In this document: positions 188-13,681 of the stretch, piece after piece | Layout: each line of letters starts with the position of its first letter | Numbering within the stretch: position 1 is the first letter of the stretch | Source: a virus | Virus genome (UHGV): UHGV-0138819 | Direction: 5' to 3' (one strand) | Length of the DNA stretch: 14,223 nucleotides | Notes under the pieces: generated by a model | What the model was told of the DNA's origin: nothing | Database searches by the model: none | What the model saw: only the letters and a program-made list of their open reading frames with translations | Made by a program: the position numbers and the translations under genes

Positions 188-258
188 GACTCGGGGTGCC
201 CTTCTGCGTGAAGGCTGAGAAATACCCGTATCACCTGATCTGGATAATGCCAGCGTAG
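188..258 (+). repeat. attL: native 5' portion of the thiM TPP riboswitch aptamer; left copy of the 71-bp imperfect direct repeat
   Basis: 188-258 equals 13557-13627 except at 206, 207 and 232. The left copy carries the bases I recall for the canonical E. coli thi-box (CUUCUGCGUGAAGG, GUAUCACC). Homology ends abruptly after 258. Confidence 0.8.
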
Positions 259-319
259 TCTTGGCGATTATCCAAGATATAAATCAAAGACTTGCACGGT
301 TTTTTCTCTTCATTTTGTT

Positions 320-1702
320 ATGTTGTCACTCAGAGAGACAAACAAAATGGCACACACACCGATCAATCACACCATCATCCGTAACGGGATCTACTACGTC
401 AGCTTTCGCCTGTCGGGTCATAAATATTTCCGTCGGTCGTTAGAGACAGATAGCCACAGCCACGCGCAACTCTTGATGTCATTTGCATCTCCAGCCATTC
501 CATTAGTCAAACGTGGAACCATTCACCCGGATCAGTTTGGTCAACGTCTTTCTGATTTCAGCAACCGCTTAAAGCAACAGAATGAACACTGGCTGGTTCA
601 ACAATTTCTCAGTGATGAACGGCGCAATCTTCAGCCGATAGTTGTTCAGGAATACCGGGAGACTGTTACACCTTCAGAAGATGAGGAAGAACAAACTGAA
701 GCACAGTCAAAGGATGTGTTAACACTGGCTGGCGCTTGGAATATGTACAAAAAGGAGAAAGCCCAAAACTGGACGAAGGCAATTTCACAGGCCAATGAGC
801 GCTTTATGGAAGTCATGTTCATTGTCCTCGGTGCATCAACAGACGTAACGACGATAACCAAGCAGGACATCAAGCAGGTGATGGAAGTTGTTGAAAACTT
901 ACCAAAGCGTGTTGTACAGCCTTATCGGTCGATGACGGTTCAGCAACTGATCGAGTGTGATGATGTGCCACCTGAAGATTTGGTTGGCGCTGAGTCTATC
1001 CACAAGCATTTGAAGATTTACAAATCGCTCTTCAAAACCTTCCTGACTGATAATAAAGATATTCTGGAGAAGTCTCCGACAGATGGAGTAGTCGCCGCAC
1101 CGTCAAAAGCGAGGTTTGGTGCATACAGTGCGGCAGAAATGAGAAAGTTTGTGGGGTGGGCGCTCAAGCAGCCTGATGGCTGGCAGAAATGGATCACCTT
1201 GTTGTTGGCGTATACGGGAGCCAGAAGAGGGGAGATCGCCAAGCTGGAGAAATCACAGATCAAATTTGATGAAGATAGCCAGCGGCACTATCTCCTGATA
1301 GCGGAAGGAGGGCAGGGGAAAACCGAGAATGCTACAAGGCAGGTGGCTATCCATCCCAAACTGATCGAGTGGGGTTTTCTTGATTTTGTAAACCGCCAAT
1401 GGAAAGAGAAAATCTTCTCGCCTGTGTCAGGTAAGAACATGCCAAAAATCGGCAAAGTCTTGGCTGATGTCCGTGATCAGCTTGGTATTCCGTACCTTGA
1501 TGATTATGGGCAGCGGCGATTAGTGCATAGTTTCCGGCATACCATGATTTCAACCTGTTTAGCTGGTTGGGTTGGGAACTTAGCGCACTTGCAACAGGTG
1601 GTTGGGCACGAGAAAAGCGGGTCAGGGATCACTCGGCGCTATCTTCATACGTTCCCGCTTTCCACTGTTTGTTATGTGATTGATGGCTTGGGTTGGTTGT
1701 AG
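320..1702 (+). CDS. int: Tyrosine site-specific integrase
   Basis: 460-aa ORF. C-terminal catalytic motifs are visible: TGARRGE (Arg), HSFRHT (His-x-x-Arg), VGHE, RRYLH (Tyr nucleophile). Alternative start at ATG 347 with a purine-rich AGAGAG upstream. Confidence 0.85.
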   Translation: MLSLRETNKMAHTPINHTIIRNGIYYVSFRLSGHKYFRRSLETDSHSHAQLLMSFASPAIPLVKRGTIHPDQFGQRLSDFSNRLKQQNEHWLVQQFLSDERRNLQPIVVQEYRETVTPSEDEEEQTEAQSKDVLTLAGAWNMYKKEKAQNWTKAISQANERFMEVMFIVLGASTDVTTITKQDIKQVMEVVENLPKRVVQPYRSMTVQQLIECDDVPPEDLVGAESIHKHLKIYKSLFKTFLTDNKDILEKSPTDGVVAAPSKARFGAYSAAEMRKFVGWALKQPDGWQKWITLLLAYTGARRGEIAKLEKSQIKFDEDSQRHYLLIAEGGQGKTENATRQVAIHPKLIEWGFLDFVNRQWKEKIFSPVSGKNMPKIGKVLADVRDQLGIPYLDDYGQRRLVHSFRHTMISTCLAGWVGNLAHLQQVVGHEKSGSGITRRYLHTFPLSTVCYVIDGLGWL

Positions 1703-1755
1703 AAGCAGAGTGATGGTTAAGTGTGAAGTGTATCAAAAAATCAGTAAGATTCGTC

Positions 1756-1785
1756 TTGAAAGTACATTTTGGATAACCATATAAA
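1756..1785 (+). promoter_or_regulatory. Candidate sigma70 promoter for the cargo genes (TTGAAA, 18-bp spacer, TATAAA)
   Basis: -35 TTGAAA at 1756-1761 and -10 TATAAA at 1780-1785, about 35 bp upstream of the ATG at 1820. Sequence-only prediction. Confidence 0.3.
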
Positions 1786-1819
1786 GCTTAAGTTAATTCC
1801 AACCAGATGAGGATGAGTA

Positions 1820-2077
1820 ATGGCAAGATGTACAGATCAGCACCGCTATTGGGATTTTTTCGAACACTTACCCGACGACCAAGGTGGTATTGGCAGACAT
1901 AAATGTTGCGGTTGTGCTTACGAAAAAGGTTATCAAGCAGGATTAATACGATCCGAAATTTTGAACATTGATCTTGATTCCTTACATGAAAGCCAAGCAG
2001 GCACTGTCCGTCATAAGAGTCCACATGCAGCCTATGCTCAAGGATATTTAGATGGTATTACAGCATCTTATCGGTAA
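1820..2077 (+). CDS. Hypothetical small Cys/His-rich protein (85 aa)
   Basis: ORF with AGGA 6 nt upstream of the ATG. Contains HKCCGC and two AYxxGY repeats. No family recognised. Confidence 0.45.
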   Translation: MARCTDQHRYWDFFEHLPDDQGGIGRHKCCGCAYEKGYQAGLIRSEILNIDLDSLHESQAGTVRHKSPHAAYAQGYLDGITASYR

Positions 2078-2109
2078 TAGCCGCCTAAAAGACAGGAGAT
2101 ACGCTATTT

Positions 2110-2541
2110 ATGTCTGGAATGTTAGCAAGCACAGCGGCCGCTGTAGGAATAATTGATAAAGCTGTAGGAATTGCAAAGAAACTTGCTGATGATGGCGGTG
2201 AACTCGATAAGGCGACGCTTAAACTTGAGCTTGCAAACCTCATGACAGAGCTTGCCAGTGTTAAAATGGAAGTTATCACCACCCAGGCGCTACTTTTTGA
2301 AGCGGAACAGAAGAACAAGCAACTTGAAAACCAATTGAAAGATAAGGAATCATTTGTTTTCAATGCCCCTCTTTATTGGAAAAATGGTGACCAAGTTCCG
2401 TTTTGCCCAAAATGTTATGAGGGTGAAGATAAGAAAGTTCATTTACGCTTAATTGTTCACAATGGTACACCGCAACTAGGACTTCCTCCTGAAAACAAAT
2501 GGGCGTGTATGCATTGTCGTTTTTCGCACTCGAACATTTAG
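2110..2541 (+). CDS. Hypothetical protein, N-terminal coiled coil plus C-terminal Cys4 zinc-ribbon-like motif (143 aa)
   Basis: AGGAGA 10 nt upstream of the ATG. C-terminus has CPKC ...(~30 aa)... CMHC. Heptad-like N-terminal segment. Confidence 0.55.
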   Translation: MSGMLASTAAAVGIIDKAVGIAKKLADDGGELDKATLKLELANLMTELASVKMEVITTQALLFEAEQKNKQLENQLKDKESFVFNAPLYWKNGDQVPFCPKCYEGEDKKVHLRLIVHNGTPQLGLPPENKWACMHCRFSHSNI

Positions 2542-2549
2542 TAAATCAA

Positions 2550-2759
2550 TCATTTTTCGTTTTCAGAAGAGTTAAACGTCTTAGAATAGGGGCAGGATTG
2601 AGAGCGAGTCATCAGGGTAAACAGGTAAACGCTGTTTTCGTAAGTGCAAAGCCTCTTCCCGCCCTGCAACTCCTGTTCGTCGGGGTTGCTCATGGTGATT
2701 TTGCTTGCCGCAGCATTAAAAGCCAGCAACATACCGCAAATCAACAGAATACCTCTCAT
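2550..2759 (-). CDS. Hypothetical small secreted protein (69 aa) with N-terminal signal peptide
   Basis: Strong SD (AAGGGGGAGA) just upstream of the ATG on the minus strand. N-terminus MRGILLICGMLLAFNAAAS looks like a signal peptide. Convergent with the 2110-2541 gene. Confidence 0.5.
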   Translation of the reverse strand: MRGILLICGMLLAFNAAASKITMSNPDEQELQGGKRLCTYENSVYLFTLMTRSQSCPYSKTFNSSENEK

Positions 2760-2831
2760 ATCTCCCCCTTGAATGAACTGCCCTCTTCAATGCTAAATTG
2801 CATCCATCGTTCAACGATTATAGTAACAAAG

Positions 2832-2872
2832 TTGATCAATTTTACCGATCGATTTCGTAATTTCGATCGATT
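2832..2872. promoter_or_regulatory. Three GATC sites and two copies of CGATCGATT in the divergent intergenic region
   Basis: GATC at 2834-2837, 2847-2850 and 2865-2868. CGATCGATT at 2846-2854 and 2864-2872. Lies between the minus-strand gene start (2759) and the plus-strand gene start (~2928). Confidence 0.35.
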
Positions 2873-2927
2873 AAAATAATTAAAAATGTTAAGGCACATG
2901 TCGATGGTGTACTTAATCTATTCATCT

Positions 2928-3692
2928 ATGGAGGCTGTTTTGAAAAAGATTCTTGCATTACCTCTTATGTTCTTTTCCTTCTCGTCCTTCTCTGAAGGCG
3001 TTTCGTCTACAGATGTACAACCATACCCTGAGTACCTGGCGGCCTATGTAAAAACGTTGATTGCTGCTGGATGTGAAGAAACATTGAAAGGCGGTTCTGA
3101 GGACGTATTGATCAAACGGGCAACGGAGGGAATGAAGAAGGGCACGACGGGTTACGATAATGTACACAATGCTATCGTGTTGGGGGCTGGTTTCGGTAAT
3201 GGACTGAAGGAAAAAGGAAAACTTATCACAAAAGAAAAAATCGCGATTGATAGTTGTGGTGGTGCAGCGGCCTATACCATGATGCAAAAAGAATTTATAA
3301 AAACGGTCGTTGCTAGTATGACTAATCCGGAACAATCGCAGGTTGCCGATAGTAAACCCAAAGTGCCAGCTTCTGATGATGCAATTTACCGTACAAAAGC
3401 ACTAGCTCTGGCTGAACTTTATAAAGCTAACGAGGTTGCAGCCGATGACAAAATTGGTGGTCGTAAGGTGGAAGTAACCGGAACTGTACAGGACATAACA
3501 AAAAATTTCACGGATGATGTAGTTCTTAAACTTGAAAGCGGTAATCGCTTCATGCCAGTCAGTCTGAGTATGTCTGATTCAGAAAAGGCGAAAGCGTCGA
3601 AATTGGAAAAGGGCCAGAAGATCACCGTGACTTGCGAAAAGATGCAGTTTTTCATCGGTGCACCGTCTGGCGGAAACTGCACCTTTAACTAA
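2928..3692 (+). CDS. Hypothetical secreted protein (~255 aa) with signal peptide and a possible OB-fold-like C-terminal domain
   Basis: Long ORF ending TAA 3690-3692. N-terminus MEAVLKKILALPLMFFSFSSFSEG looks like a signal peptide. Start ambiguous: ATG 2886, 2898, 2928, or TTG 2940 preceded by GGAGG at 2930-2934. The OB-fold resemblance is my guess. Confidence 0.6.
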   Translation: MEAVLKKILALPLMFFSFSSFSEGVSSTDVQPYPEYLAAYVKTLIAAGCEETLKGGSEDVLIKRATEGMKKGTTGYDNVHNAIVLGAGFGNGLKEKGKLITKEKIAIDSCGGAAAYTMMQKEFIKTVVASMTNPEQSQVADSKPKVPASDDAIYRTKALALAELYKANEVAADDKIGGRKVEVTGTVQDITKNFTDDVVLKLESGNRFMPVSLSMSDSEKAKASKLEKGQKITVTCEKMQFFIGAPSGGNCTFN

Positions 3693-3706
3693 TCTGTCAT
3701 ACGGTC

Positions 3707-3727
3707 TGCCGGGTAAAATTCCCGGCA
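3707..3727 (+). other. Hairpin just downstream of the cargo CDS (7-bp stem TGCCGGG/CCCGGCA, 7-nt loop), no U-tract
   Basis: Inverted repeat seen directly. Not followed by a T-run, so terminator function is uncertain. Confidence 0.3.
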
Positions 3728-4986
3728 ACTCATCTACCCCACCTCATGGATGTCCCTGCTATTTGACGATCCAGCTTACATGCTCTTGCTGAAAATATCT
3801 TACGGCTCTCTGGGCCAGGTGCCTGACGTGACAGACGATCCCTCAATAATTTCTTATCTTCTTGCTGAAATATCGCAGAGCCGACAGGCCCAGTAACGTA
3901 TTTCACCACTTCATCCCGTAGAGCATCACAGCAGGGAAAACTTGCCGCAATAGGGCATTCTACTGTTCGTTTTCTGGTCTATTTAACATAATGGTTCTTA
4001 TAAGTACTTGACTGGAATGGTCAGGTATTACTTTTCGGAACGTTGACGCGAAGCTGGGTACACAACAGCGATTTCACCAACAGAAGGAAAGCATTCAGGA
4101 GGATTCGAGGTGAGTTCTCTTGTTCAAGGATTTTGGATGAGTTTGCCTGGTCACCACACAATTTCAGGTTTCAGACCTTTGAGGCTGCCAGTGTGTCAAA
4201 CGCCATAAAAGCACTTTTTTCTGTTTACCAGCAGACACAAAGCCACTACACCGACGTTACCACAACGGGCTGAAGGTCTGCCATCACCTGGTGATATTCA
4301 CGAGCCTGACCGCCACTGTTTCGTACCATTTCCCAAAACAATGTAAACAGCCAACCCACCAATCCCTTCTACGCTCCACCAGAAGCGCTACAGTGCGTTA
4401 TCCCCCCAGATGTAAACTGACGTACCGATAATCCACGACATCCCACAGCGCGATACAGGAACCACCAGAGGACATCTGTTTTAGTTTTAATGTGTCTTTT
4501 TTATTTTTTGTAAAAAGATGGTTCAGAAAGTGGGTTGTGTTTAGCACCCATTCAATTGGCGGATTCGCCTAGGCCGCGCCATTACTGGCTTCGCTGCATG
4601 CACCACACCATAACGCCCATAGGTACAAACTTGTGATTTGTACGTTTAGTGACCACTTTAGCATGATTAACTACGGATTATAGGCTATTTGAGGTGTATT
4701 TAATCTACTTTGTTCGCAGGATAGCCAATGATAAAGATCATCCACCAAATTTTCACAGAAAACTAGTATAGGGTTGCCAATCTTCAGCCAGCGCGGAGAA
4801 TGGTCGGTATTTTCAGATGAAAGCGGGGGAGGGAGATGATCAATTCTCGGAGCGGATCAGGTGCCTGGACCGCCTCAGGTGTTGCCGTCGATTGTGCCAT
4901 TGAAGCATGACGCGGACATATCAAACCAGAAGTTTTCATCGGTACGTTGGTCGCTTGGATGACTTGGAAAATTCTCACCCGGTGAT

Positions 4987-5075
4987 ACCTGCACGATTTT
5001 CGTGTACCCACCCCCTCGATTTTCGAGCACCTACCTGCACGATTTTCGAGTAGGGGGTAGTCGATTTTCGAGCAC
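4987..5075. repeat. Iteron-like array: four CGATTTTCG-centred repeats at 22-23 bp spacing, followed by an AT-rich tract; candidate replication origin or protein-binding array
   Basis: CGATTTTCG at 4994, 5017, 5040 and 5062. ACCTGCACGATTTTCG is exact at 4987-5002 and 5033-5048. CGATTTTCGAGCAC is exact at 5017-5030 and 5062-5075. AATAATAATAAATAACAAT follows at 5076-5094. Confidence 0.55.
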
Positions 5076-5649
5076 AATAATAATAAATAACAATCTCCAT
5101 AAAAGAACTGATAAGAAAAGTACCTCCAGGTCGAGAGCACGGAATGACGGTTGGTCATTCTGTTAGTTTTAATAGTGATGCTTCTGCATCGCTCCGCTCT
5201 GCAATGGCTGGTCAGCCACTTCAGATATGTTTGTGGTAAGAAGCTCACCTTTGCTGACGTGAAACAGCCGCGCCATCTCGTGACCTTCTAACCCTCGTTA
5301 ACACATCGCTACGCTCTGTGACTCGGGTAACCCGACAGGCTACGCCAGAGAGCTACGCTCTCACTCTGTGTGGAAGCTGCGAACTTGTTCGCCATATGTG
5401 GATCGGAGCACGGCGGAGAGGACTGCTTTGCATCTGTCCGGTTCACTCCGGGGCGGCGCGGGTTGTCTAACTGACTTCCTCAGCGCCTCTCTACGGCGTT
5501 TAAATGGTGTGGGTAACACGATGGTACTGCTATAACGACGAGTCCCCGCAGAACGCGTCACAGAACGATCTAGCACTATTGACAAAGATTTTTTAAACTT
5601 GTAATGTTATGGTGATTATTATGCATTATAAAATGCTACATGATAATGA

Positions 5650-5678
5650 TTGCTATTTACAAACAAATCTGATACAAT
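5650..5678 (+). promoter_or_regulatory. Candidate sigma70 promoter for the 5824-10406 operon (TTGCTA, 17-bp spacer, TACAAT)
   Basis: -35 TTGCTA at 5650-5655 and -10 TACAAT at 5673-5678 in an AT-rich region about 145 bp upstream of the first operon ATG. Confidence 0.4.
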
Positions 5679-5823
5679 AGATTTTAGTAGGGTAATGATT
5701 TACCTACGAATCCTCGAATAATTCTGCCGTCATCACGACATTCCTTGTCAACCTCACGGCAATACAAAATGGGTTACAAATAGAACCTCCGCGAATAATT
5801 CTTTTAACAGAACGGAGAACCCA

Positions 5824-6270
5824 ATGAATAAACCAAAATCCCAACGTCTCGACCTGACCACTATGACAGGCGAGCAGATCGCTGATCTCATCCTGAACGG
5901 CAAATACACCAAATCAGCTTTGTGGGCCTTCATTAGTAGAAACGGCGGGGCAGACGCTGTACATGCTCGACTTCCTCAGATCGCCGTCTGCCTGCAAATC
6001 CTGAAGCAGGCGCGGAAGAAAGCGAAGCAGGCACGAGTGGTTAAGACGGTGCTGAAGCCTCTGAGCAATAAATATGCTGAGGGTAATTCCTTAACGCAAA
6101 TCCTGAATCCTGTGTTACAGGGCTACCGCGAGCTATATAGAGAAAAACTGAATCTGGACCTGACACCAGAACAGGTGATCTTGCTCTTGATCGCCACTGA
6201 TGGTGTGGAACGTCTGGAATCCTACGGTTACACCTGTGCGGGTGACTTCCCGACCGCAACCGCAGTCTAA
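5824..6270 (+). CDS. Hypothetical protein (148 aa), first gene of the rightward operon
   Basis: GGAGA 8 nt upstream of the ATG. No family recognised. Confidence 0.6.
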   Translation: MNKPKSQRLDLTTMTGEQIADLILNGKYTKSALWAFISRNGGADAVHARLPQIAVCLQILKQARKKAKQARVVKTVLKPLSNKYAEGNSLTQILNPVLQGYRELYREKLNLDLTPEQVILLLIATDGVERLESYGYTCAGDFPTATAV

Positions 6271-6357
6271 CAACACTGAACAAAACCTGAGCCGGTTCGC
6301 CTTTGGGCGACCACTGGCGGGAGGTCTTTTGTACCTAAAACGAGGAGGACAACTTGA

Positions 6358-6561
6358 ATGAACATCAAATTTCAACAGCACGTTTATCAGGCTCTACTAG
6401 CTGAGGCCAAAAGGCAGGACAAGCCCCTGGCACGGCTCTGTAATGAAATCTTGGAGACTGCCGCGAACATTTTCGACAACACACCAGACATCAAACCAGC
6501 ATTAGCCAGCAAGGCGACACTTTACGGAGAACAGAATGAGCAAACAGAACCGGGACAGTAA
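6358..6561 (+). CDS. Small putative ribbon-helix-helix (Arc/MetJ/CopG-like) DNA-binding protein (67 aa)
   Basis: AGGAGGA upstream of the ATG. N-terminal strand-like MNIKFQQ followed by two predicted helices (QALLAEAKRQ, PLARLCNEILETA). RHH assignment is by pattern only. Confidence 0.55.
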   Translation: MNIKFQQHVYQALLAEAKRQDKPLARLCNEILETAANIFDNTPDIKPALASKATLYGEQNEQTEPGQ

Positions 6562-7282
6562 GGATTTTGTAAAACTTGAATACAGCATTCTCGACCTTAC
6601 CGAGTACAACGGCCTGACCATTAATGGCAACATGAAAATTTTGCTATCTCTGGTTTACAGCTATGACAAAACAGGCAGAACTTATTACGAGTCTGTTGGC
6701 ATGATTGGTAAACGTTGCGGCTGCAAGCCCGAAGCCGTTCGTAATTTCAGGAACAAGCTTCGTGAAGCGGGAATGATCACTTTTGAGGAAGAGCAGGGGA
6801 GAACACACAAAATTTCTCCGGTCGAACTCGATCCATCGTTGATGGTTTTTCTTGACGATCATAATTCCACGCAGGTGAGTAATAGAAAAGTGGAAACCGA
6901 GGAGAGCGGTAAGAATGAGCAGAAACGTGATGTGGAATCTTTCGTGGTGGAACCTGCCGCGCCTGTTGCTGGAAAACCAGACGGCCTACCTGTTGTGGAT
7001 ATTCCTGTCGATGCTGATGTACCTGCCAATGATGATGCGGTGAACGCTTCTGATAGGTATACCGATGAACAATTAGGCACCAAGCTGAGGCGATGGCGCA
7101 ATTGGGGACTGGATGAAGAAGCAAAAGCGTTTTGTCTCTCTCATGGTATCAGCAGCGATGAGGACAGCATGAATCTGTTTATTCAAAATTATCATGTACC
7201 CGCACCGGAGTCAGTAGAACAACAGGTTAACGCCCCAGCAGATGAGCTGCCGCTTGATTATGATGACTCGATCCCTTTCTGA
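6536..7282 (+). CDS. Hypothetical protein (248 aa) with a putative winged-helix DNA-binding segment and acidic C-terminal region; candidate replication initiator or regulator
   Basis: GGAGA 5 nt upstream of the ATG. Overlaps the previous ORF by 26 nt. Segment YESVGMIGKRCGCKPEAVRNFRNKLREAGMI resembles wH/HTH domains. C-terminal half is D/E-rich. Confidence 0.55.
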   Translation: MSKQNRDSKDFVKLEYSILDLTEYNGLTINGNMKILLSLVYSYDKTGRTYYESVGMIGKRCGCKPEAVRNFRNKLREAGMITFEEEQGRTHKISPVELDPSLMVFLDDHNSTQVSNRKVETEESGKNEQKRDVESFVVEPAAPVAGKPDGLPVVDIPVDADVPANDDAVNASDRYTDEQLGTKLRRWRNWGLDEEAKAFCLSHGISSDEDSMNLFIQNYHVPAPESVEQQVNAPADELPLDYDDSIPF

Positions 7283-7296
7283 TACTGGAGGAATAA

Positions 7297-7818
7297 TTGT
7301 GTGATGTTGCCAACAGCCTGACGGCTGAAACCCTTACGGTGCGAAGCACTTTACCAGAGGTAAACAAATCCGGTGCTGACGCCCCTGATTTGTCCCGTTT
7401 TTACAAGGCCCGCTCTCGTGATACCTCGTTGATCGAGACTGCTAAAAAAATGCTCGTTCACGGTTACACCCCAGGCAAAACGGCGCTGCTCCTACGCTTG
7501 CCGTATGACCTGGTAAAAGGCCTTTACGATAACTCGTGGAATCCTCGCTGTCGCAAGATAAGTAATACCAGTCAGTACGCTACTAAGCGAATGGCCCGAA
7601 TGTACTACGAATCCGGCGCAATGCTGGCAAAAATCTGTGCTGACCTTCAACTGCCTCTATTCACTGTGGTAACGCTGCTCAAGCGTGAAGGAATCACTGA
7701 AAAAGAAATGGCATCTCGAATGCCTGTTAGTGATGATCCGTTGTTCATTGAGTACCGGAAGACTATTTCACGCAAGCAGGCAGCGCCCCAACGCCGATCA
7801 CCACGACTGCATTATTAA
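7297..7818 (+). CDS. Hypothetical protein (173 aa), possible tandem HTH-like segments
   Basis: TTG start 5 nt after GGAGG (7287-7291). No family recognised. Confidence 0.5.
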   Translation: MCDVANSLTAETLTVRSTLPEVNKSGADAPDLSRFYKARSRDTSLIETAKKMLVHGYTPGKTALLLRLPYDLVKGLYDNSWNPRCRKISNTSQYATKRMARMYYESGAMLAKICADLQLPLFTVVTLLKREGITEKEMASRMPVSDDPLFIEYRKTISRKQAAPQRRSPRLHY

Positions 7819-7836
7819 TACCCCAGCCGGGGAAAC

Positions 7837-8265
7837 TTGACCCTATTTGAATATTTATCCTTTCTGCCGTTAGCGGTAGCTGTTCTCCAATGGCTTCGTG
7901 ACGGCCTGGACCTCTACAGGAAACATAACAATATGAATAACATTGAAGCAATCCGCGCCAGTATCCGGGAAGCAATGACCGCAGGAACAGACGAACCGGA
8001 AGATCTGAACAAATCCGCTGAAGAAGCATTGGCGGAGGCGGTGCAGAGTTACCTGTCCGCTTCGACTGCAACAGCCAGCGAGCCAGCCCCAAAAAGTGGT
8101 AAAACCATCAAGGAAAAAGGGATCGCTCTGTGCCACCAAGCCCAAGGTTATAGCGCTAATCTGCGTCCGGTAAGTCTCATGATGAAGGCAAGTCTTGATG
8201 AGCTAACACCTGAACAACGCGCCGCGCTTGAGCGTCTGGGTTACGATATCAATCAGGGGGTGTGA
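7837..8265 (+). CDS. Hypothetical protein (142 aa from TTG 7837, or 111 aa from ATG 7933)
   Basis: TTG 7837 preceded by GGGGA. In-frame ATG at 7933 preceded by AGGAAA. Its stop TGA (8263-8265) overlaps the next ATG (8265-8267). Confidence 0.5.
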   Translation: MTLFEYLSFLPLAVAVLQWLRDGLDLYRKHNNMNNIEAIRASIREAMTAGTDEPEDLNKSAEEALAEAVQSYLSASTATASEPAPKSGKTIKEKGIALCHQAQGYSANLRPVSLMMKASLDELTPEQRAALERLGYDINQGV

Positions 8266-10406
8266 TGTCTGGCACAAATAAGATTGTTACCAGCACCGTT
8301 AATGAAATCTCGTGGATCACAGACGATGCCTCATATCAAAAAGCCAAAAAGAAGATTATCTCGCTTAAGGCTGCTCATGAGAAACCAGCTAAAGCGCTTG
8401 AGAAGGCCCAGAAGCGGACCGTCCAGAGTGAAGGCAAAGCAGCACTAGCCGCAGCGAAAGCCCAGACAGCGAAGCTACGCCAGGCTGAACAATTGTCAAA
8501 ACAGCAACAGAAACAAGCTCAGATACAAGCCAAAATGGAACGGGATGCAGTCTCCCACGCTAATAAAATGACCTCATTACAGGCGCGTCAGTTATCCCAG
8601 CAGGAACAGGCCGCACGGCAGAATGCCAGACTAGCAGCGATATCTGACAAGGTGAGACAGGCGAGTCGCTCCCGTGCAATGACCTACAATCCCAACATGC
8701 CTGGAGTTCACTCCGATCCATCTCTGGTGGCACGTCAAAATGCAGCGATGAACCGTGGTCACGGCGCTGTTGCTGCTGACATCGCAGCCACCAAAAAGGC
8801 GATGGCCTTGGAGGAGAAGCGTCAGCGTGAGAAAGAGGCAGGCCTTAAGCGCGAGGTGACTTATTACAACAGTTTGCGCCGTAGCGCTCTGACTCTGGCA
8901 AACGTGAACGGCGCTGACGTTGCAACCCGGTACAAAGCCATCAGTGCAGCAAAAGAGGCACTTAAAGCCCAGAAAGAAGAGCGCTATACGGTTGAAGAGA
9001 CCCGCTTCGAAATGGCTCGTATCACCACCGAATTACGCAAGCAGGCTCGTCTGCAACAGCGTATGACCCGTGAGCAGAAAGCCGCAGGTGTTCGTGCTGG
9101 TCGTGTACGCACAGAAAGCCGTGGTGGTAGAGCTGGTCTTGCAGCTGCTGGTGTTATTGGTGGTGCGTCGTTAGTGGGTAGTATGGGCGTTTCTCGTGTC
9201 GGTCAGACCCTCCAGGGAAGCCTTGAGCGCTCTCGCGATGTGAAAAAACTCCAGCAGTACGGGATCAGCAACCTTGAGTTCGCTGCACTTCAGGATCTCT
9301 CGATGAGCCGTGTTGGTTACTCACTGAGTGCTGACAAGCTGGCTGACCTCAACAAGGACACAACCGAAAAGGCCGGGGAATTGTTAAACACCGGCTCTTT
9401 CAAACGTAACAAGAAAACTGGACAGGTGAATTTCAGCGGCGGTGGCGAGTTCGCAGATATCATCAACAATGTGCTGACCTCCACCAACGGTAACCAGAAG
9501 GTAGCACAGAAGGTGATCGGAGAACTGCAAAAGCTGGATTTTCCGACCTTCATCACTTACCTGAAACAGTTGCAGAAAACTTTCAAATGGACGGACAACC
9601 AGACCCGGCACCTGGCTGAGGCTGTGAATGATGGTTCGGTCTTCCTCGAAGTGTTCAATGATGAGGGGCAGGGACTTATCCAGCGTATGCATCAACTCTC
9701 TTCTGAAGGATGGACCCTATCTGATGCGCAGCAAGCCAACCTCGATAAACTGGCGGCGTTAGGTGCTGAGTACAACCGAGTGCAAACCAGCCTTGCAGAT
9801 CATTTCTCAGCCTCGTTTGTTGAAGGCCTGGGGCAGTACGCTGCCAATACTGAAACTCTACGTCAGAAGATGACTGGACTGATCCCAATTTCCGATGCCC
9901 TCGGCGTTGCCCTTGGTGAGCTAACCACCAACATTCTCTCCTTCTCTGGTCGAGTCGGTGAAGAACTTAAGAAAGGCGCGACATTGCCGGATGCGGTGTA
10001 TACGAGCGTGGTAGATGAATCTGCAAACGGTGCTGCCGATTGGATTAAGGAAAAGACAGGCTTTGATCCACGTAGCATCGGTCAGACGCTTAAGCAGATT
10101 TACCCGTGGCTGGATAGTTCAGCACCGAGCAATATTGGCTCAGGCACGGCGTATAACGATCCAGCGCTAGCGTTGAATGTTCCTAGCCTGAACTATCTGA
10201 CACCCCAGCAACCGACGTTTACGGTTCCGACAATTGACAGCATGACGCTGCGACAGCCGATTCCTGTCAGTGTTACCGGGCAAGCGAACATTAATCAGCA
10301 GATGGATGTGTTTGTCCATGACGATAAGATCGCAGGGCTGGTTGATACCAAGATAAGGGAGAACAACCACGCGCAGAATAACCTCATCCTTGGGATTGCA
10401 GACTAA
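8265..10406 (+). CDS. Large hypothetical protein (~713 aa): Ala/Lys/Gln-rich coiled-coil N-terminal ~300 aa, Gly-rich hydrophobic segment, unrecognised C-terminal region
   Basis: Uninterrupted 2.1 kb ORF with start overlapping the upstream stop (TGATG). Hydrophobic GLAAAGVIGGASLVGSMGV mid-protein. No Walker A, no relaxase HxH motif, no primase zinc-finger pattern seen. Confidence 0.7.
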   Translation: MSGTNKIVTSTVNEISWITDDASYQKAKKKIISLKAAHEKPAKALEKAQKRTVQSEGKAALAAAKAQTAKLRQAEQLSKQQQKQAQIQAKMERDAVSHANKMTSLQARQLSQQEQAARQNARLAAISDKVRQASRSRAMTYNPNMPGVHSDPSLVARQNAAMNRGHGAVAADIAATKKAMALEEKRQREKEAGLKREVTYYNSLRRSALTLANVNGADVATRYKAISAAKEALKAQKEERYTVEETRFEMARITTELRKQARLQQRMTREQKAAGVRAGRVRTESRGGRAGLAAAGVIGGASLVGSMGVSRVGQTLQGSLERSRDVKKLQQYGISNLEFAALQDLSMSRVGYSLSADKLADLNKDTTEKAGELLNTGSFKRNKKTGQVNFSGGGEFADIINNVLTSTNGNQKVAQKVIGELQKLDFPTFITYLKQLQKTFKWTDNQTRHLAEAVNDGSVFLEVFNDEGQGLIQRMHQLSSEGWTLSDAQQANLDKLAALGAEYNRVQTSLADHFSASFVEGLGQYAANTETLRQKMTGLIPISDALGVALGELTTNILSFSGRVGEELKKGATLPDAVYTSVVDESANGAADWIKEKTGFDPRSIGQTLKQIYPWLDSSAPSNIGSGTAYNDPALALNVPSLNYLTPQQPTFTVPTIDSMTLRQPIPVSVTGQANINQQMDVFVHDDKIAGLVDTKIRENNHAQNNLILGIAD

Positions 10407-10440
10407 AATCATCGTTCCGTCGAAAATGGCGCAGCAAATT

Positions 10441-10460
10441 GGCCCACACGAGAGAGGGCC
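10441..10460 (+). terminator. Weak terminator-like hairpin after the 714-aa gene
   Basis: GGCCC (10441-10445) pairs with GGGCC (10456-10460) around a 10-nt loop, followed by a T-rich stretch (GTTATTGTTTTTGTTGTTG). Confidence 0.25.
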
Positions 10461-10490
10461 GTTGAATTCGCCATGTTATTGTTTTTGTTG

Positions 10491-10520
10491 TTGCAAATGA
10501 TAATCATTCGTGTTAAAATA
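10491..10520 (+). promoter_or_regulatory. Fur-box-like palindrome (AATGAT-A-ATCATT) overlapping a candidate sigma70 promoter (TTGCAA, 18-bp spacer, TAAAAT)
   Basis: Perfect 6-1-6 inverted repeat at 10495-10507 inside 10493-10511, about 14/19 match to the Fur consensus GATAATGATAATCATTATC as I recall it. -35 TTGCAA 10491-10496, -10 TAAAAT 10515-10520. Confidence 0.35.
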
Positions 10521-10926
10521 ATATACAAGGTGAATTACAACAGCCAAATGTTTTCCCTTCTCCTTAGGAATCAAAGTGCGCTTTTCCCAGAGCGCCTTTT
10601 CTCATACAGCCAATATTCGCACCCTCTCACGGTAAGGTTAGGCCATTGCCGCTGGCTGTATCAGAAAAGATTTTCTCCGACCTTGGATCGGGGATTTGCC
10701 AAAGCCTTTCATCCTCGGAAGGCCGTCTTGCCAGACGAAAACTGGCATTGAGTGCGGCAGCGAAGATATGAGGTCTCCCGCTGCTGTGCTCCCTCATTCC
10801 TGAAGCGTGACCCGCCGATCATGCTTTCCAAATCTCTCCATCAGAAAATACCATCGTGAAGCTATTAGCAACGCATGTTGCTAACCCGTAAACGGGTGAA
10901 TTTCATCATCTCCGATGATCTACCAA

Positions 10927-10962
10927 CCGGGGCAGGCGTTTTCCTGCCTCCGGCTCTTTTTC
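10927..10962 (+). terminator. Terminator-like hairpin (CCGGGGCAGG / CCTGCC-T-CCGG) followed by CTCTTTTTCT
   Basis: About 10-bp GC-rich stem with one bulge, T-rich tract a few nt downstream. Confidence 0.4.
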
Positions 10963-10984
10963 TGTTGGGAATACAAATAAAAGA

Positions 10985-11010
10985 ATGCCGTCCGATGGAC
11001 GGTATTTTTT
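10985..11010. terminator. Rho-independent terminator, probably bidirectional
   Basis: Stem ATGCCGTCC / GGACGGTAT with loop GAT, then TTTTT on the plus strand. The plus-strand AAATAAAAG just upstream gives a U-rich tract on the minus strand. Confidence 0.6.
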
Positions 11011-11049
11011 CAACACAACCCGGCATATTCGCCGGATTATAAAAATTGC

Positions 11050-11412
11050 ATGGAGATACAACAAAATATGGCATTCGAACATGAAAGCAAAACCCCACAG
11101 GATGTATTGGTTTATACCGATAGCCCGATCTTTCATAAGCGCACCGTGATCTTTGATCTGGCTGCTGATGTGACTTGTGGTGATGTGATTAACCCGACCA
11201 CTGGCGCGGCATACGTTGCAGCCGATGCTGATAACTGTGCTGTAGCTCTGCAAAATCAAATCGCTGGTGATGCCCGTAGCCTGGTCATTTCAGACCGTGG
11301 CTGTGTGTTCAATCCATCTGGTCTGGTTGTAGCGGCTGCTGCAAAAGATGCTGCTTACGCTGCCCTTGTTAAGCAAGGCAACCGCATTGCTGACGCAAAC
11401 ACTGCAATCTAA
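11050..11412 (+). CDS. Putative phage head decoration-like protein (120 aa, or 114 aa from ATG 11068)
   Basis: Small Ala/Gly/Val/Asp-rich protein immediately upstream of a ~340-aa capsid-like ORF, the lambda D-E arrangement. Product call is inference from size, composition and gene order. GGAGA at 11052-11056 fits the 11068 start. Confidence 0.5.
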   Translation: MEIQQNMAFEHESKTPQDVLVYTDSPIFHKRTVIFDLAADVTCGDVINPTTGAAYVAADADNCAVALQNQIAGDARSLVISDRGCVFNPSGLVVAAAAKDAAYAALVKQGNRIADANTAI

Positions 11413-11430
11413 TCAAGGAGTGATAACAAT

Positions 11431-12447
11431 ATGAAATTAAGTGATTTTACTAACCTTTCCGGTCAGTTTGTGAAGCCAAGCGGCGAGGGGTTCCTTCTGT
11501 CCAGCCTGGGGATCTTTACCAGCCGTCCAAGTGATACGCAAATCATCGCGCTCGACACACTGGAAGATGTGCAGCGTGAAGTGACCAAATCTGTTGCCCG
11601 TTATGGTTCTGAAATGTCCGGTCTAAACTTCCCTAAAGCGGCTAACGTGACTGTTCAGGCTCCACTGCATGTCTACAGCTCAACCATCACCAGCCAGGAT
11701 TGGCAGGGGAAACGTCAGCCGGGAACAAATCGCCAGATGACCGCTGAAGATGTAGTTGCTAATCATACCCTGAAGCACTACCTGCAAACCCGCCGTGATG
11801 TTGAATATGCCATGGCGCAGAGCCTGCTTCACAATACTGTAGAGGCGACACACCTTCGTGAAGGTCCTGATCTGAACTGGCAAACCTTCTGGGGTATTAA
11901 CCAGCCGTCTGCTGTGGTGAAAACTGGCATCAGTGCCAACGTTATTACTGAGATGCAGAACGCTGTCACGCTGCTGAAGAAAAATCTGGGTGGCTGGTCT
12001 TCCAGCATCAAGCAGGTTTATCTGCTAGCGAGTCCGAGTCTTTTCACCGCCATTCAAGGCAACCCAACCGCATATCAGGCGGCTCTGTTTGGTGCTACGT
12101 CCCGTGACATCATTTTCCCTGACACTTTGGGCGCATATGATCGATACAACATCGGGCGCGTAACTGTAGTTCAGGTTGACGATCCGCTATACGGCATTGC
12201 AGATGGTGAAGGCTACATGCTGGCGACGTTCTCCAATGTTGTTGAAGGCGACCTTTCACCTTATATGACTTACCAGACTCCGGCGAGCCGTCATGCTGAC
12301 GTTGCTAATGGTCCGGTTTATCCGTCTTACCATTACGTTCTGCGTGATAAGTTCATGAATTATGAGGTGGTCAGCGAGCTATCACAAATTCAGATCCCAA
12401 TGCGTCCAGACTTCGTTTTGAAAATTACGATGGATGACGCGGCGTAA
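11431..12447 (+). CDS. Putative major capsid protein (338 aa), possibly lambda gpE-like
   Basis: AGGAG upstream of the ATG. Length and position after the small decoration-like ORF fit a major capsid protein. Family assignment not verified. Confidence 0.6.
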   Translation: MKLSDFTNLSGQFVKPSGEGFLLSSLGIFTSRPSDTQIIALDTLEDVQREVTKSVARYGSEMSGLNFPKAANVTVQAPLHVYSSTITSQDWQGKRQPGTNRQMTAEDVVANHTLKHYLQTRRDVEYAMAQSLLHNTVEATHLREGPDLNWQTFWGINQPSAVVKTGISANVITEMQNAVTLLKKNLGGWSSSIKQVYLLASPSLFTAIQGNPTAYQAALFGATSRDIIFPDTLGAYDRYNIGRVTVVQVDDPLYGIADGEGYMLATFSNVVEGDLSPYMTYQTPASRHADVANGPVYPSYHYVLRDKFMNYEVVSELSQIQIPMRPDFVLKITMDDAA

Positions 12448-12509
12448 GACAGCGTATTTTGGGGGCGCATTGCCCCCGCTGCAGGCGAGCCAAAGGAAAG
12501 GAGATACAT

Positions 12510-12722
12510 ATGAAATTAGCTTTGATCGGTACTGGCAACATGCCGCTGATGCAGTGGATTCTAGATGGCAAGGGCGATGATGCGATTATCAACATGTCAG
12601 CGTTAGCACGCAGGCTTGAGTGTAGTCGTTCCAGCCTACTTGACCGCATCCATACGCATGGATTCGACAGCGCTATTAGGTACTACCTCAACGAACAGCG
12701 ACAACGAAAACTGAAAACATGA
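12510..12722 (+). CDS. Small HTH-like protein (70 aa); candidate DNA-binding, excisionase or packaging accessory
   Basis: Strong SD (AAGGAAAGGAGA) 6 nt before ATG 12510. The ORF track extends it to 12459, but the SD supports 12510. INMSALARRLECSRSSLLDRI resembles a helix-turn-helix. Confidence 0.55.
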   Translation: MKLALIGTGNMPLMQWILDGKGDDAIINMSALARRLECSRSSLLDRIHTHGFDSAIRYYLNEQRQRKLKT

Positions 12723-12723
12723 G

Positions 12724-12749
12724 AGCCGGGTTAATCCCGGCTTTTTTTA
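12724..12749. terminator. Strong rho-independent terminator shared by convergent genes
   Basis: AGCCGGG-TTAAT-CCCGGCT followed by 7 T (12743-12749), 1 nt after the plus-strand stop. The hairpin overlaps the last codons and stop of the minus-strand CDS. Confidence 0.8.
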
Positions 12750-13366
12750 TGTACTTTGCTGAAGTCAAAAAGATTGTCAAATTTAATGATATCTAATCCA
12801 GAGATAGCGTGATTAACATCTTTCATCATTGCGCCATGTTCATCATAAGCGTTACGTATTGCCATGAATTCTTCTGGTGTTATCTGTGCTTTAAGCAAAG
12901 CCTGCATGATGAGAGTCATCAGTTTTGAGATGGCTATTTGCGTATTACCAGAAGATCGAAGAAGGGCGTTGAATGGCTCCCAGGAAACCTTTTTAATCAG
13001 AACATTATAGTGACTTAACTTGATGAAAGAGCTACCAATGCGAAAGGTATTTTCCGTCATATCTTTCAAGGATTCTTGAATATGATAATAGCTTTCTTCG
13101 TCGGCTTTTTGTCCTGATTTCGCCAGTGTGTCGAGAAAAGTCATAATGCGGTTTAAGTCAAAGCGCATACGATTGTAACGGCTTCTGGTGCTATCAATTT
13201 CTTCTTTAAGAGCGATTGCTGAATCAATTGCCCGCTCCATTTTTCTCGTCTTCACAATCTCCTGAAGTTTAACCCCTCCGAAGATGACGCCGCCAACCAC
13301 ACTCAACGCTGTTACAGCATTCGAAGCGATAGAGATAATGTTATCCCATGCTTGTAAATCCATCAT
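12731..13366 (-). CDS. Hypothetical membrane-anchored protein (211 aa) with one N-terminal transmembrane helix; candidate exclusion or defence gene
   Basis: AAGAGG SD before the ATG on the minus strand. N-terminus IISIASNAVTALSVVGGVIFGGV looks like a TM helix. Appears AT-rich by eye. Convergent with the capsid operon, adjacent to attR. Confidence 0.65.
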   Translation of the reverse strand: MMDLQAWDNIISIASNAVTALSVVGGVIFGGVKLQEIVKTRKMERAIDSAIALKEEIDSTRSRYNRMRFDLNRIMTFLDTLAKSGQKADEESYYHIQESLKDMTENTFRIGSSFIKLSHYNVLIKKVSWEPFNALLRSSGNTQIAISKLMTLIMQALLKAQITPEEFMAIRNAYDEHGAMMKDVNHAISGLDIIKFDNLFDFSKVHKKSRD

Positions 13367-13405
13367 AACCTCTTTTTTTAATGCGGTAGTTGACGACTTA
13401 AGAGC

Positions 13406-13435
13406 ATTCTACATGGCACACATTGTGTCACTCAA
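13406..13435 (-). promoter_or_regulatory. Candidate sigma70 promoter for the 12731-13366 gene (minus strand: TTGAGT, 18-bp spacer, TAGAAT)
   Basis: Reverse complement of 13406-13411 is TAGAAT and of 13430-13435 is TTGAGT, about 35 nt upstream of the minus-strand ATG. Confidence 0.3.
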
Positions 13436-13556
13436 CCTGTCACACATAGACCAAAAGGGCCGCTTTTACCGTTTACAAGACTTCCCGCTGGCATTACTAT
13501 CCTGATCAGGGATTAATGAGGAGCATTAATCGCAAGCTTTTGATTTTATAGTACAT

Positions 13557-13627
13557 GACTCGGGGTGCCCTTCTTTGTGAAGGCTGAGAAATACCCGTAT
13601 TACCTGATCTGGATAATGCCAGCGTAG
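13557..13627 (+). repeat. attR: element-derived riboswitch-like 5' arm plus shared core; right copy of the 71-bp direct repeat
   Basis: Differs from 188-258 at three positions (TT for GC at 13575-13576, T for C at 13601). Canonical host sequence resumes after 13627 (GGAAGTCACGG...). Confidence 0.8.
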
Positions 13628-13681
13628 GGAAGTCACGGACCACCAGGTCATTGCTTCTTCACGTTATGGCAGGAGCAAACT
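13557..13681 (+). promoter_or_regulatory. TPP (thi-box) riboswitch in the thiM 5' leader, hybrid of element-derived 5' aptamer half and host 3' half plus expression platform
   Basis: GGGGTGCCCTTCT..GTGAAGGCTGAGAAATACCCGTAT.ACCTGATCTGGATAATGCCAGCGTAGGGAAGTCACGGACCACCAGGTCATTGCTTCTTCACGTTATGGCAGGAGCAAACTATG matches the E. coli thiM riboswitch as I recall it, apart from three substitutions in the 5' half. Confidence 0.85.

Follow-up and report, generated by a model that had tools for sequence, protein, structure and literature searches.

An integrative element in the thiM riboswitch of Escherichia coli carries capsid, scaffold-mimic and tape-measure genes related to those of rV5/phi92-type myoviruses and may represent an undescribed satellite family

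The stretch of DNA analyzed in this study (virus genome UHGV-0138819; 14,223 nucleotides, hereafter called the window) was revealed to be the rcnR-thiM locus of Escherichia coli, with 100% identity to strains AREA_C483 and TC24, and to hold an integrative element, the candidate phage satellite considered here; among 5,426 complete E. coli genomes, only these two strains hold the whole element. An earlier note, made from the sequence alone, had proposed an element of ~13.4 kb starting at position 233 and inserted in the thiamine pyrophosphate (TPP) riboswitch of thiM. The insertion was borne out by 71-nt direct repeats at 188-258 and 13557-13627, which are 96% identical and spaced 13,369 bp apart, but position 233 lies inside the left repeat, and the element proper extends from 188 (or 259) to 13556 (or 13627). 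A tyrosine integrase gene at one end, also proposed in that note, was assigned at 347-1702 on the + strand (alternative open reading frame (ORF) start at 320) by Pfam PF00589 (9.4e-07) and phrog_1 (6.9e-26), and its product is 83-90% identical to the integrases of other islands using the same thiM attachment (att) site.

When both junctions were aligned against the empty rcnR-thiM site of K-12, the left repeat (the attL core) proved to be the exact host allele, the right repeat (the attR core) carried three or four element-derived substitutions at core positions 19-21 and 45, and the switch between host and element sequence fell exactly at the repeat ends on both flanks. As judged from these alignments, the insertion is a site-specific one within the thiM TPP aptamer, with a predicted crossover in core positions 46-71. 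At attR, the full-length riboswitch has been rebuilt (RF00059, 73.6 bits), the core lying inside the functional thiM TPP riboswitch at 13551-13647. At attL, an aptamer-like copy directly upstream of the integrase gene (182-278, + strand; given as a riboswitch in the RefSeq annotation) scored 53.6 bits, slightly under the RF00059 gathering score of 54.3. The attL junction (182-346) thus holds a near-complete aptamer between the host thiM promoter region and the integrase start, and the joint of CGTAG with TC recreates AGTC, a candidate P1 3' strand, so that the integrase in the integrated state might be expressed from the thiM promoter and respond to thiamine pyrophosphate. A riboswitch that is both inserted into and repaired is an unusual choice of att site. 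An Rfam search of the window at a permissive threshold returned nothing beyond the two TPP copies, and a tRNA search of the window returned none.

The decoration-like/capsid-like pair suspected in the earlier note was confirmed by profile searches. A gpD-like head decoration protein (11068-11412, + strand; Pfam HDPD, 6e-4) is encoded directly upstream of a major capsid protein of the HK97 type (11431-12447, + strand; Pfam Phage_cap_E, 2.8e-3; phrog_29, 2.5e-9), and this decoration-then-capsid arrangement is the same as in rV5/phi92-like phages. The HK97-type assignment rests on the family profile, which matched capsids of known structure over the full length, namely, phi92 gp124 (1.8e-25) and the 332-aa capsid protein 9cul (2.5e-21). 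In phiTE, a member of Vequintavirinae, the capsid is a T=13 shell of the capsid protein and a trimeric beta-tulip decoration protein (PMC11972413).

A third virion-type protein, the 110-aa o110 (7933-8265, + strand), is termed the mini-scaffold here, as its C-terminal part copies the N-terminus of a scaffold-position protein of Vequintavirinae. Residues 58-95 of o110 showed 76% identity over 38 aa to residues 7-41 of gp4 from phage nomine (pairwise E 9e-18), and the hidden Markov model (HMM) of the o110 family retrieved the same nomine protein at 2.7e-15. The motif matched 321 phage records, those listed being 135-149-kb myoviruses. In addition, the o110 ortholog in the related sequence L009 (L numbers denote the sequences compared with the window) carries PF26210, Phage_phiTE_211, and the o110 variant of the E. 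coli H8 member (L003) also had its best matches in Vequintavirinae. The nomine gp4 sits between the XkdF-type prohead protease gp3 (Pfam S78_2, 8.7e-18) and the decoration and capsid genes, that is, in the scaffold position. This 326-aa protein (region 3294-4693 of nomine, L025/L026) is annotated as "head stabilization/decoration protein" in Vequintavirus records, which, considering its place after the XkdF-type gp3, is probably a misnomer. The ~40-aa motif at its N-terminus has been conserved among Escherichia, Vibrio, Campylobacter, Klebsiella, and Aeromonas phages.

The 713-714-aa protein encoded at 8265-10406 on the + strand, formerly described as a coiled-coil protein, is on sequence grounds a homolog of tape-measure proteins. 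Its residues 308-565 were 31% identical (E 5e-31) to gp168 of Klebsiella phage FBKp34 (Stephanstirmvirinae), which occupies the tape-measure position after the sheath, the tube, and two chaperone-sized genes and before the baseplate genes. Furthermore, its N-terminal 217 aa matched the N-terminus of the annotated nomine tape-measure protein gp16 (E 7e-15), and tape-measure families of PHROGs were also matched. The gene stands alone between the mini-scaffold gene and a noncoding leader, without chaperone, tube, sheath, or baseplate genes. Searches of the Protein Data Bank (PDB) with this protein and with o110, as single sequences and as profiles, gave nothing useful. Meanwhile, the family HMMs of the tape-measure homolog and the capsid protein retrieved the nomine tape-measure protein (1.6e-16) and capsid protein (5.2e-15), respectively, so that, together with o110, the family HMMs picked exactly the scaffold-position, tape-measure, and capsid proteins in nomine. 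These profile and pairwise comparisons indicate that the four virion-type proteins of the element are all homologous to proteins of rV5/phi92-type phages.

A gap of 660 nt separates the tape-measure and decoration genes. The gap was aligned across ten members of the family described below, including those without a tape-measure gene, and the same layout was found in all ten: an operon-end terminator hairpin, a promoter, a leader of ~520 nt with conserved blocks, two tandem intrinsic terminators, a ribosome-binding site, and the decoration gene. The promoter at the leader start is of the extended -10 type (TTGCAA-17-TGnTAAAAT; 10491-10519, + strand), with TGnTAAAAT being invariant across the aligned members. 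The terminators T1 (10927-10964) and T2 (10986-11011), which together span 10927-11011 on the + strand just upstream of the head genes, were retained as hairpins in all aligned members, and three of their base pairs showed compensatory changes. In the Aeromonas members, a promoter-like site and one strong terminator occur in the same place. The simplest reading of this layout, drawn by analogy, would be a late control like that of lambda, in which a short transcript is made constitutively and read-through takes place only with an antiterminator; the leader could alternatively be a regulatory RNA. A LexA box was sought and none was found.

Within the leader lies a module of two hairpins, TTAGCAAC-GCAT-GTTGCTAA followed by CCCG-TAAA-CGGG (10865-10896, + strand), which was also found in Seunavirus intergenic DNA, with a 38-bp match in two Salmonella phages of this genus (E 4e-4). 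The 32-nt module has an 8-bp stem with a variable loop; its position in the leader differs between members, and the changes in its stem are compensatory. It was likewise observed at 3007-3038 of L005/L006, at 14936-14967 of L002, and in the leaders of L021 and L020. By its distribution, the module seems to behave like a small mobile structured element or a binding site for a protein or RNA.

A noncoding stretch of 2.1 kb lies between the cargo genes near the integrase and the co-oriented core block, and no DNA similarity of this region to phage records was found. It contains a putative replication origin (4986-5125) composed of four CGATTTTCG iterons with 23-bp spacing (4986-5078), as the earlier note had seen, followed by an AT-rich run. 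Downstream, a 248-aa winged-helix protein resembling replication initiators is encoded at 6536-7282 on the + strand (Pfam HTH_36, 4.6e-4; DUF6945 in orthologs), which also matched replication-initiator and DnaD-like families of PHROGs (5.6e-6 to 3e-3). The repeat array occupies the same relative position in every member, with a repeat sequence that varies: the window, L002, and L016 share the same iteron and the same initiator N-terminus, L003 and L021 have another repeat, TCATCGGTAA, and another, DUF6945-type initiator, and the remaining members represent further types. Such co-variation of iteron sequence with initiator type, seen across 11 members, is the signature expected of an iteron origin with its own predicted initiator, and the tandem repeats, the AT-rich run, and the predicted cognate DNA-binding initiator together make up a putative iteron replicon. 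The view that the element has no replication enzymes hence held for a primase or helicase and failed for the initiator-like protein with its matching iteron origin. Because no helicase or primase is encoded, the replisome would presumably come from the host or a helper. As a side observation, the two members in the single genome of Pseudocitrobacter vendiensis (L020 and L021) have different iterons and initiator types.

The 2.1-kb stretch further includes a conserved island at 4330-4470, with two ATGTAAAC[AT]G repeats; its + strand is rich in C, and a T-rich run comes after it. At the nucleotide level, this island stayed 74-81% identical even in members with protein identities of only 30-50%; its conservation was not frame-specific, and RNAalifold gave no consensus fold for it. 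Judging from this pattern, the island could serve as a binding site for a protein or as a pac-like or rut-like site.

The ordered core recurred, at differing att sites, in Aeromonas and in eight or more genera of enterobacteria. The members include those of E. coli (at tRNA-Gly and thiM), Klebsiella, Raoultella, Silvania, Enterobacter, Cedecea, Pseudocitrobacter (the two in one genome), and Pantoea, and homologs of the core proteins o148 and o173 extend the range to Citrobacter, Cronobacter, and Rahnella. In other E. coli, the core (3977-12748 of the window) is ~91% identical; the insertion there is at a tRNA-Gly gene, the integrase is a different one and is encoded at the opposite end, and the element is bounded by 23-nt repeats 13,248 bp apart. 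The member of E. coli H8 (L003) is much more divergent, although it occupies the same thiM site with a size of ~13.7 kb, and it encodes a second capsid type with only 26% identity. The element sizes measured were 13,369, 13,248, ~13,690, and ~12,475 bp. The gene order was constant and the modules were mosaic, with the capsid and decoration proteins being 85-99% identical between most members and the other core proteins 30-90%. Pairwise ratios of nonsynonymous to synonymous substitution (dN/dS) were 0.03-0.10 for the capsid, 0.04-0.14 for the decoration, and 0.12-0.22 for the tape-measure gene, and 0.09-0.24 for o148, o173, and o70.

About half of the enterobacterial members carry the tape-measure gene. 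The islands in Aeromonas, of ~11.5 kb, contain an integrase, an HTH_36/DUF6945 initiator, a TMP_3 protein (8.2e-7), a gap of 500 nt, and an XkdF protease (3.4e-11), followed by a 98-aa phiTE_211-like protein with the scaffold N-terminal motif, a gene in the decoration position, and a capsid gene (Phage_cap_E, 7.9e-28). Since these islands carry TMP_3, the tape-measure gene appears to be an old feature of the family. By gene content and order, the Aeromonas form is seen as an rV5-like head module in which the scaffold has been cut to its N-terminal motif and a tape-measure gene added, with no other virion genes, and the enterobacterial branch is seen as a derivative from which the protease was lost and in which the mini-scaffold gene was relocated to the upstream side of the tape-measure gene, the latter having disappeared from about half of the members. 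Full-text literature searches turned up neither the family nor an account of DUF6945 nor any satellite of Vequintavirinae, and the family is apparently undescribed.

These distribution data bear directly on an alternative also raised in the earlier note, namely, that a larger prophage decayed or was rearranged to leave the element as a remnant. The few virion genes, the many orphan ORFs, the ~2.1 kb of noncoding DNA, and the clear damage in some relatives (L017, and L013 with a capsid gene cut by an insertion sequence) would fit a remnant. Decay would not be expected to leave one compact gene order recurring in eight or more genera, with the att repeats intact and the integrases differing; every core gene tested was under purifying selection, and the noncoding parts hold conserved, seemingly functional sites, namely, an invariant promoter, terminators, and iterons co-varying with the initiator. 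Moreover, rV5/phi92-like phages are virulent and are not known to form prophages. We thus dismiss the remnant as extremely improbable because the dN/dS values are low (0.03-0.24), the att sites are intact, and the size stays within ~12.5-13.7 kb. The insertion in L013 (3631-5581; also seen in L014), in which an IS3-family element cuts the capsid gene to 233 aa, is an instance of real decay, unlike the element in the window.

Searches of all ORFs against Pfam, PHROGs, and NCBIfam revealed no terminase, portal, protease, primase/helicase, relaxase, sheath, tube, or baseplate protein, and no assignment to a well-described satellite or prophage family. The list of missing genes given in the earlier note accordingly stood for the terminase, portal, protease, and relaxase; the exception was that one tail gene, the tape-measure homolog, is present. 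A conjugatively mobilized island was considered as a candidate and rejected, as neither a relaxase nor an oriT was recognized. The general features of a satellite were found, i.e., an integrated element with its own integrase and att sites and an incomplete set of virion and packaging genes. The mismatch with the gene sets of P4-like satellites, PICI, cf-PICI, and integrative mobilizable elements noted earlier persisted after the profile searches. For PICI, only int was found, without alpA, pri-rep, terS, or a capsid-morphogenesis gene, and for P4-like satellites there was no Pfam or PHROG match to psu, sid, delta, alpha, epsilon, or alpA.

In function, the element appears by analogy to be closest to cf-PICIs, which have their own capsid and steal tails, and to PLE, which has a virulent myovirus as helper and small capsids. 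Like the element, cf-PICIs are enterobacterial integrative islands of ~10-15 kb with their own HK97-type capsid, the rest presumably being borrowed from a helper. In SatelliteFinder, cf-PICIs (Alqurainy et al. 2023; de Sousa et al. 2023) are defined by 11 core components, with tail genes as a "forbidden" component (PMC10085698). The element has two of the 11, the integrase and the capsid protein, along with the forbidden tape-measure gene. A divergent cf-PICI could account for the integrase, the own capsid and decoration proteins, and the incomplete virion set, and such an element would likewise build its own capsids and steal tails. However, TerS, TerL, the portal, the protease, the head-tail adaptor and connector, HNH, the AlpA-type regulator, and the primase-replicase (Pri-Rep), which cf-PICIs have, are missing here; conversely, the scaffold mimic, the tape-measure homolog (no tail gene occurs in cf-PICIs), the iteron/initiator replicon, and a capsid of the rV5/phi92 clade are found only in the element. 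Membership in cf-PICIs is hence scarcely conceivable, and, unlike in cf-PICIs, the rV5/phi92-clade capsid indicates virulent helpers.

The likeness to PLE, a Vibrio cholerae satellite of the virulent myovirus ICP1, lies in a virulent myovirus helper of ~125-150 kb with a related head module, an own replication initiator, and small capsids, the last being a proposal in the case of the element; the scaffold N-terminal motif matched 82 Vibrio phage records. PLE differs in that it has neither a capsid protein nor a tape-measure gene and remodels the ICP1 coat with the external scaffold TcaP, and no sequence relationship between the two was recognizable. No Pfam or PHROG match pointed to PLE proteins, whose specific core includes a RepA_N initiator, TcaP, and NixI, PLE profiles not being among those searched. 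P4-like satellites share with the element a size of ~11-13 kb, integration in Enterobacteria, a variable hotspot for defense or other cargo, and a head decoration function (Psu in P4), but the element has no homologs of sid, psu, delta, epsilon, the alpha primase-helicase, or AlpA, and P4 has the temperate helper P2, a cos site, and no capsid or tape-measure gene. CpmB of the satellite SaPI1 is a small protein with a short terminal segment in common with the internal scaffold of phage 80alpha. The mini-scaffold resembles this protein in its logic, with no sequence homology; whereas CpmB and P4 Sid reshape the coat of the helper, the element supplies its own coat, and the segment shared is the scaffold N-terminus. 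As far as the description in PMC10803314 extends, PICMI is a minimal island without capsid-remodeling genes, from which the element departs by its 13.4 kb, its capsid, decoration, and tape-measure genes, and the lack of a recognized TerS. The Streptomyces satellites MiniFlayer and Mulch are outlined in PMC10690885 as having their own encapsidation machinery, a helper for other functions, and, in one case, a virulent-type lifestyle; by this outline alone they are comparable to the element, their hosts belonging to a different phylum and no sequence relationship having been found. The closest counterpart of the structural genes remains the head module of Vequintavirinae and Stephanstirmvirinae (rV5, phiTE, phi92), with its protease, scaffold motif, decoration, and capsid genes and a tape-measure gene elsewhere in the set. 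Those phages are virulent and complete with 135-150 kb, whereas the element keeps only the N-terminal motif of the scaffold and has no genes for the portal, terminase, or neck and no tail genes other than the tape-measure one.

Taken together, the cross-genus conservation, the purifying selection, the stable size, and the structural genes homologous to those of rV5/phi92-type phages make a new family of helper-dependent, satellite-like elements, as had been suggested earlier, the best-supported explanation. Helper-dependent satellite behavior in general is regarded as likely. On the narrower question of the helper, we lean toward an undescribed satellite family of Enterobacterales and Aeromonas whose likely helpers are rV5/phi92-type virulent myoviruses (Vequintavirinae and Stephanstirmvirinae). 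Packaging and transfer are what we infer from these data.

In the mechanism proposed, infection by an rV5/phi92-type helper would trigger excision of the element and replication from its own origin, and read-through of the leader terminators would turn on the decoration and capsid genes. The own capsid protein would then build small shells for ~13 kb, roughly of T=4, as compared with the T=13 shells of the helper (~140 kb). The mini-scaffold would bridge these shells to a conserved part of the helper, either the portal or the XkdF-type protease; because its motif is 76% conserved, as against 21% for the capsid, and is common to very diverse phages, the portal or protease would be a more likely partner than the coat. 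The helper terminase would fill the shells and helper tails would be attached. Where the tape-measure gene is present, the tails might be built on or modified by the tape-measure protein of the element, whose N-terminus would correspond to the helper region lying in the neck; the tape-measure N-terminus of phiTE is located in the connector (PMC11972413). These assembly steps would probably also interfere with helper assembly. The complete picture, in which the element would belong to the first satellite family of large virulent rV5/phi92-like myoviruses in Enterobacterales and Aeromonas, with a hijacking strategy new to satellites that combines its own small shells, a scaffold-mimic adaptor by which these shells are nucleated or matured on helper parts, its own tape-measure protein in helper tails, and terminator-gated head genes, is offered only tentatively.

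Several results weigh against a helper-dependent satellite of these phages. A small terminase, a pac or cos site, an excisionase, and a repressor all went unrecognized, and the datasets searched showed the element in no excised, replicating, or encapsidated form. A search of nomine for the iteron, the 4330-4470 island, the hairpin motifs, and any short DNA match yielded nothing above chance, the two-hairpin match in Seunavirus is short (E 4e-4), and the promoters resemble ordinary sigma-70 promoters, which does not favor helper-dependent expression. Identity between the capsid protein and any phage capsid protein known reaches only 21-24%, and compatibility with the helper portal is therefore an assumption. 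The element is uncommon in E. coli, with 12 carriers among 5,426 complete genomes; it is absent from all 50,697 phage records (best capsid match, 24% identity), and IMG/VR contains only two contigs with it, both in an integrated context. In addition, the Logan contig SRR21534169_227 (L010; 12,500 nt) has both ends inside the att core with a terminal overlap of 25 nt; this overlap is ambiguous between a circular attP form and a collapsed assembly repeat and was not used as evidence.

The lack of a recognized packaging function would also be expected if the element were a defense island that interferes with assembly, in which the capsid, decoration, scaffold-mimic, and tape-measure proteins act as decoys poisoning the assembly of rV5/phi92-like phages and which is not packaged and spreads otherwise. 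The mini-scaffold copies a highly conserved helper motif as a competitive inhibitor would, the tape-measure homolog comes without other tail genes, the cargo slot of relatives holds defense genes, and defenses blocking virion or tail assembly are known, namely, Tab (PMC10884400) and Tai (PMC11364771). Nevertheless, a full-length capsid and decoration pair under constraint (dN/dS 0.03-0.14) exceeds the needs of a decoy, and a packaging limit is suggested by how little the size varies (12.5-13.7 kb) among members that differ in integrase and cargo. The capsid identity of ~80-96% across genera, furthermore, points to recent horizontal spread, yet no conjugation gene is present. We judge such a decoy island to be rather unlikely, and it overlaps with the satellite interpretation in that known satellites both interfere with the helper and get packaged.

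Another explanation is that the capsid and decoration proteins, which can in principle self-assemble and have their own promoter, form a helper-free protein compartment or a particle resembling gene transfer agents. Such a particle would lack a portal and a terminase to package DNA, as well as a partner for cargo targeting. Only with phage parts do the scaffold motif and the N-terminus of the tape-measure homolog, both matched to phage counterparts, make sense, and two terminators block the head genes by default; we consider such a particle very unlikely.

The proposed dependence on rV5/phi92-like helpers would be of practical relevance, as rV5-like and phi92-like phages are widely used in phage therapy and biocontrol of E. 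coli, Salmonella, and Klebsiella. The literature searched yielded no satellite of these virulent phages. If the proposal is true, the element would represent a new natural resistance or interference factor against those phages, a new route for horizontal transfer of defense cargo, and a compact system for joining a foreign coat protein to the portal, protease, and tail of another virus. Two features are without parallel in satellite families described so far, namely, the tape-measure gene standing alone and the pairing of a scaffold-terminus mimic with a capsid protein of the satellite's own.

The remaining genes of the element lie mainly beside the integrase and around the initiator. A variable cargo slot (1820-3692) encodes an 85-aa protein (phrog_3941) and a 143-aa protein (phrog_1244), both of PHROG families of unknown function, a 69-aa protein, and an OB-fold protein resembling tRNA_anti or Sie (2940-3692). 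The 69-aa protein (2550-2759, - strand) has a signal peptide and is conserved in most members at the boundary between cargo and noncoding DNA; its family HMM showed weak similarity (E 6e-3) to a small membrane protein beside the lysin of nomine. In E. coli H8 (L003, 3314-4762), the slot beside int holds an Old-like ATP-dependent nuclease (PADLOC, 5.5e-46), which suggests that the slot is a defense hotspot like that of P4-like satellites. A different island of ~10.6 kb in E. coli A11 (L004, NZ_CP028763; 1688-12332) occupies the same thiM att site with a 90% identical integrase and has the 85-aa and OB-fold cargo genes in common, without the capsid or tape-measure core. As judged by these gene comparisons, the integrase and cargo module is swapped between unrelated islands.

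The operon of o148 is preceded by a sigma-70-like promoter (TTGCTA-17-TACAAT with TG; 5650-5678, + strand), predicted by consensus match only. The products o148 (5824-6270), o67 (6358-6561), o173 (7297-7818), and o70 (12510-12722), all on the + strand, gave no match in Pfam, PHROGs, NCBIfam, or PADLOC. The orphan core protein o148 is predicted to be all-helical (AlphaFold2 (AF2) pLDDT 78) and forms 73 clusters, all in Enterobacterales; o173, with 42 clusters, is predicted to have two bundles resembling helix-turn-helix (HTH) domains. Structure predictions and fold searches revealed no function for either protein, with no fold match for o148 and generic HTH matches only for o173. The small orphan o67 is conserved in the family, and o70, conserved in all members, may be an HTH protein, its ortholog in L009 showing a weak match to HTH_Mga (5e-3). 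At the right end, a 211-aa accessory protein is encoded at 12731-13366 on the - strand, with homologs in the same position in L013, L018, and L022.

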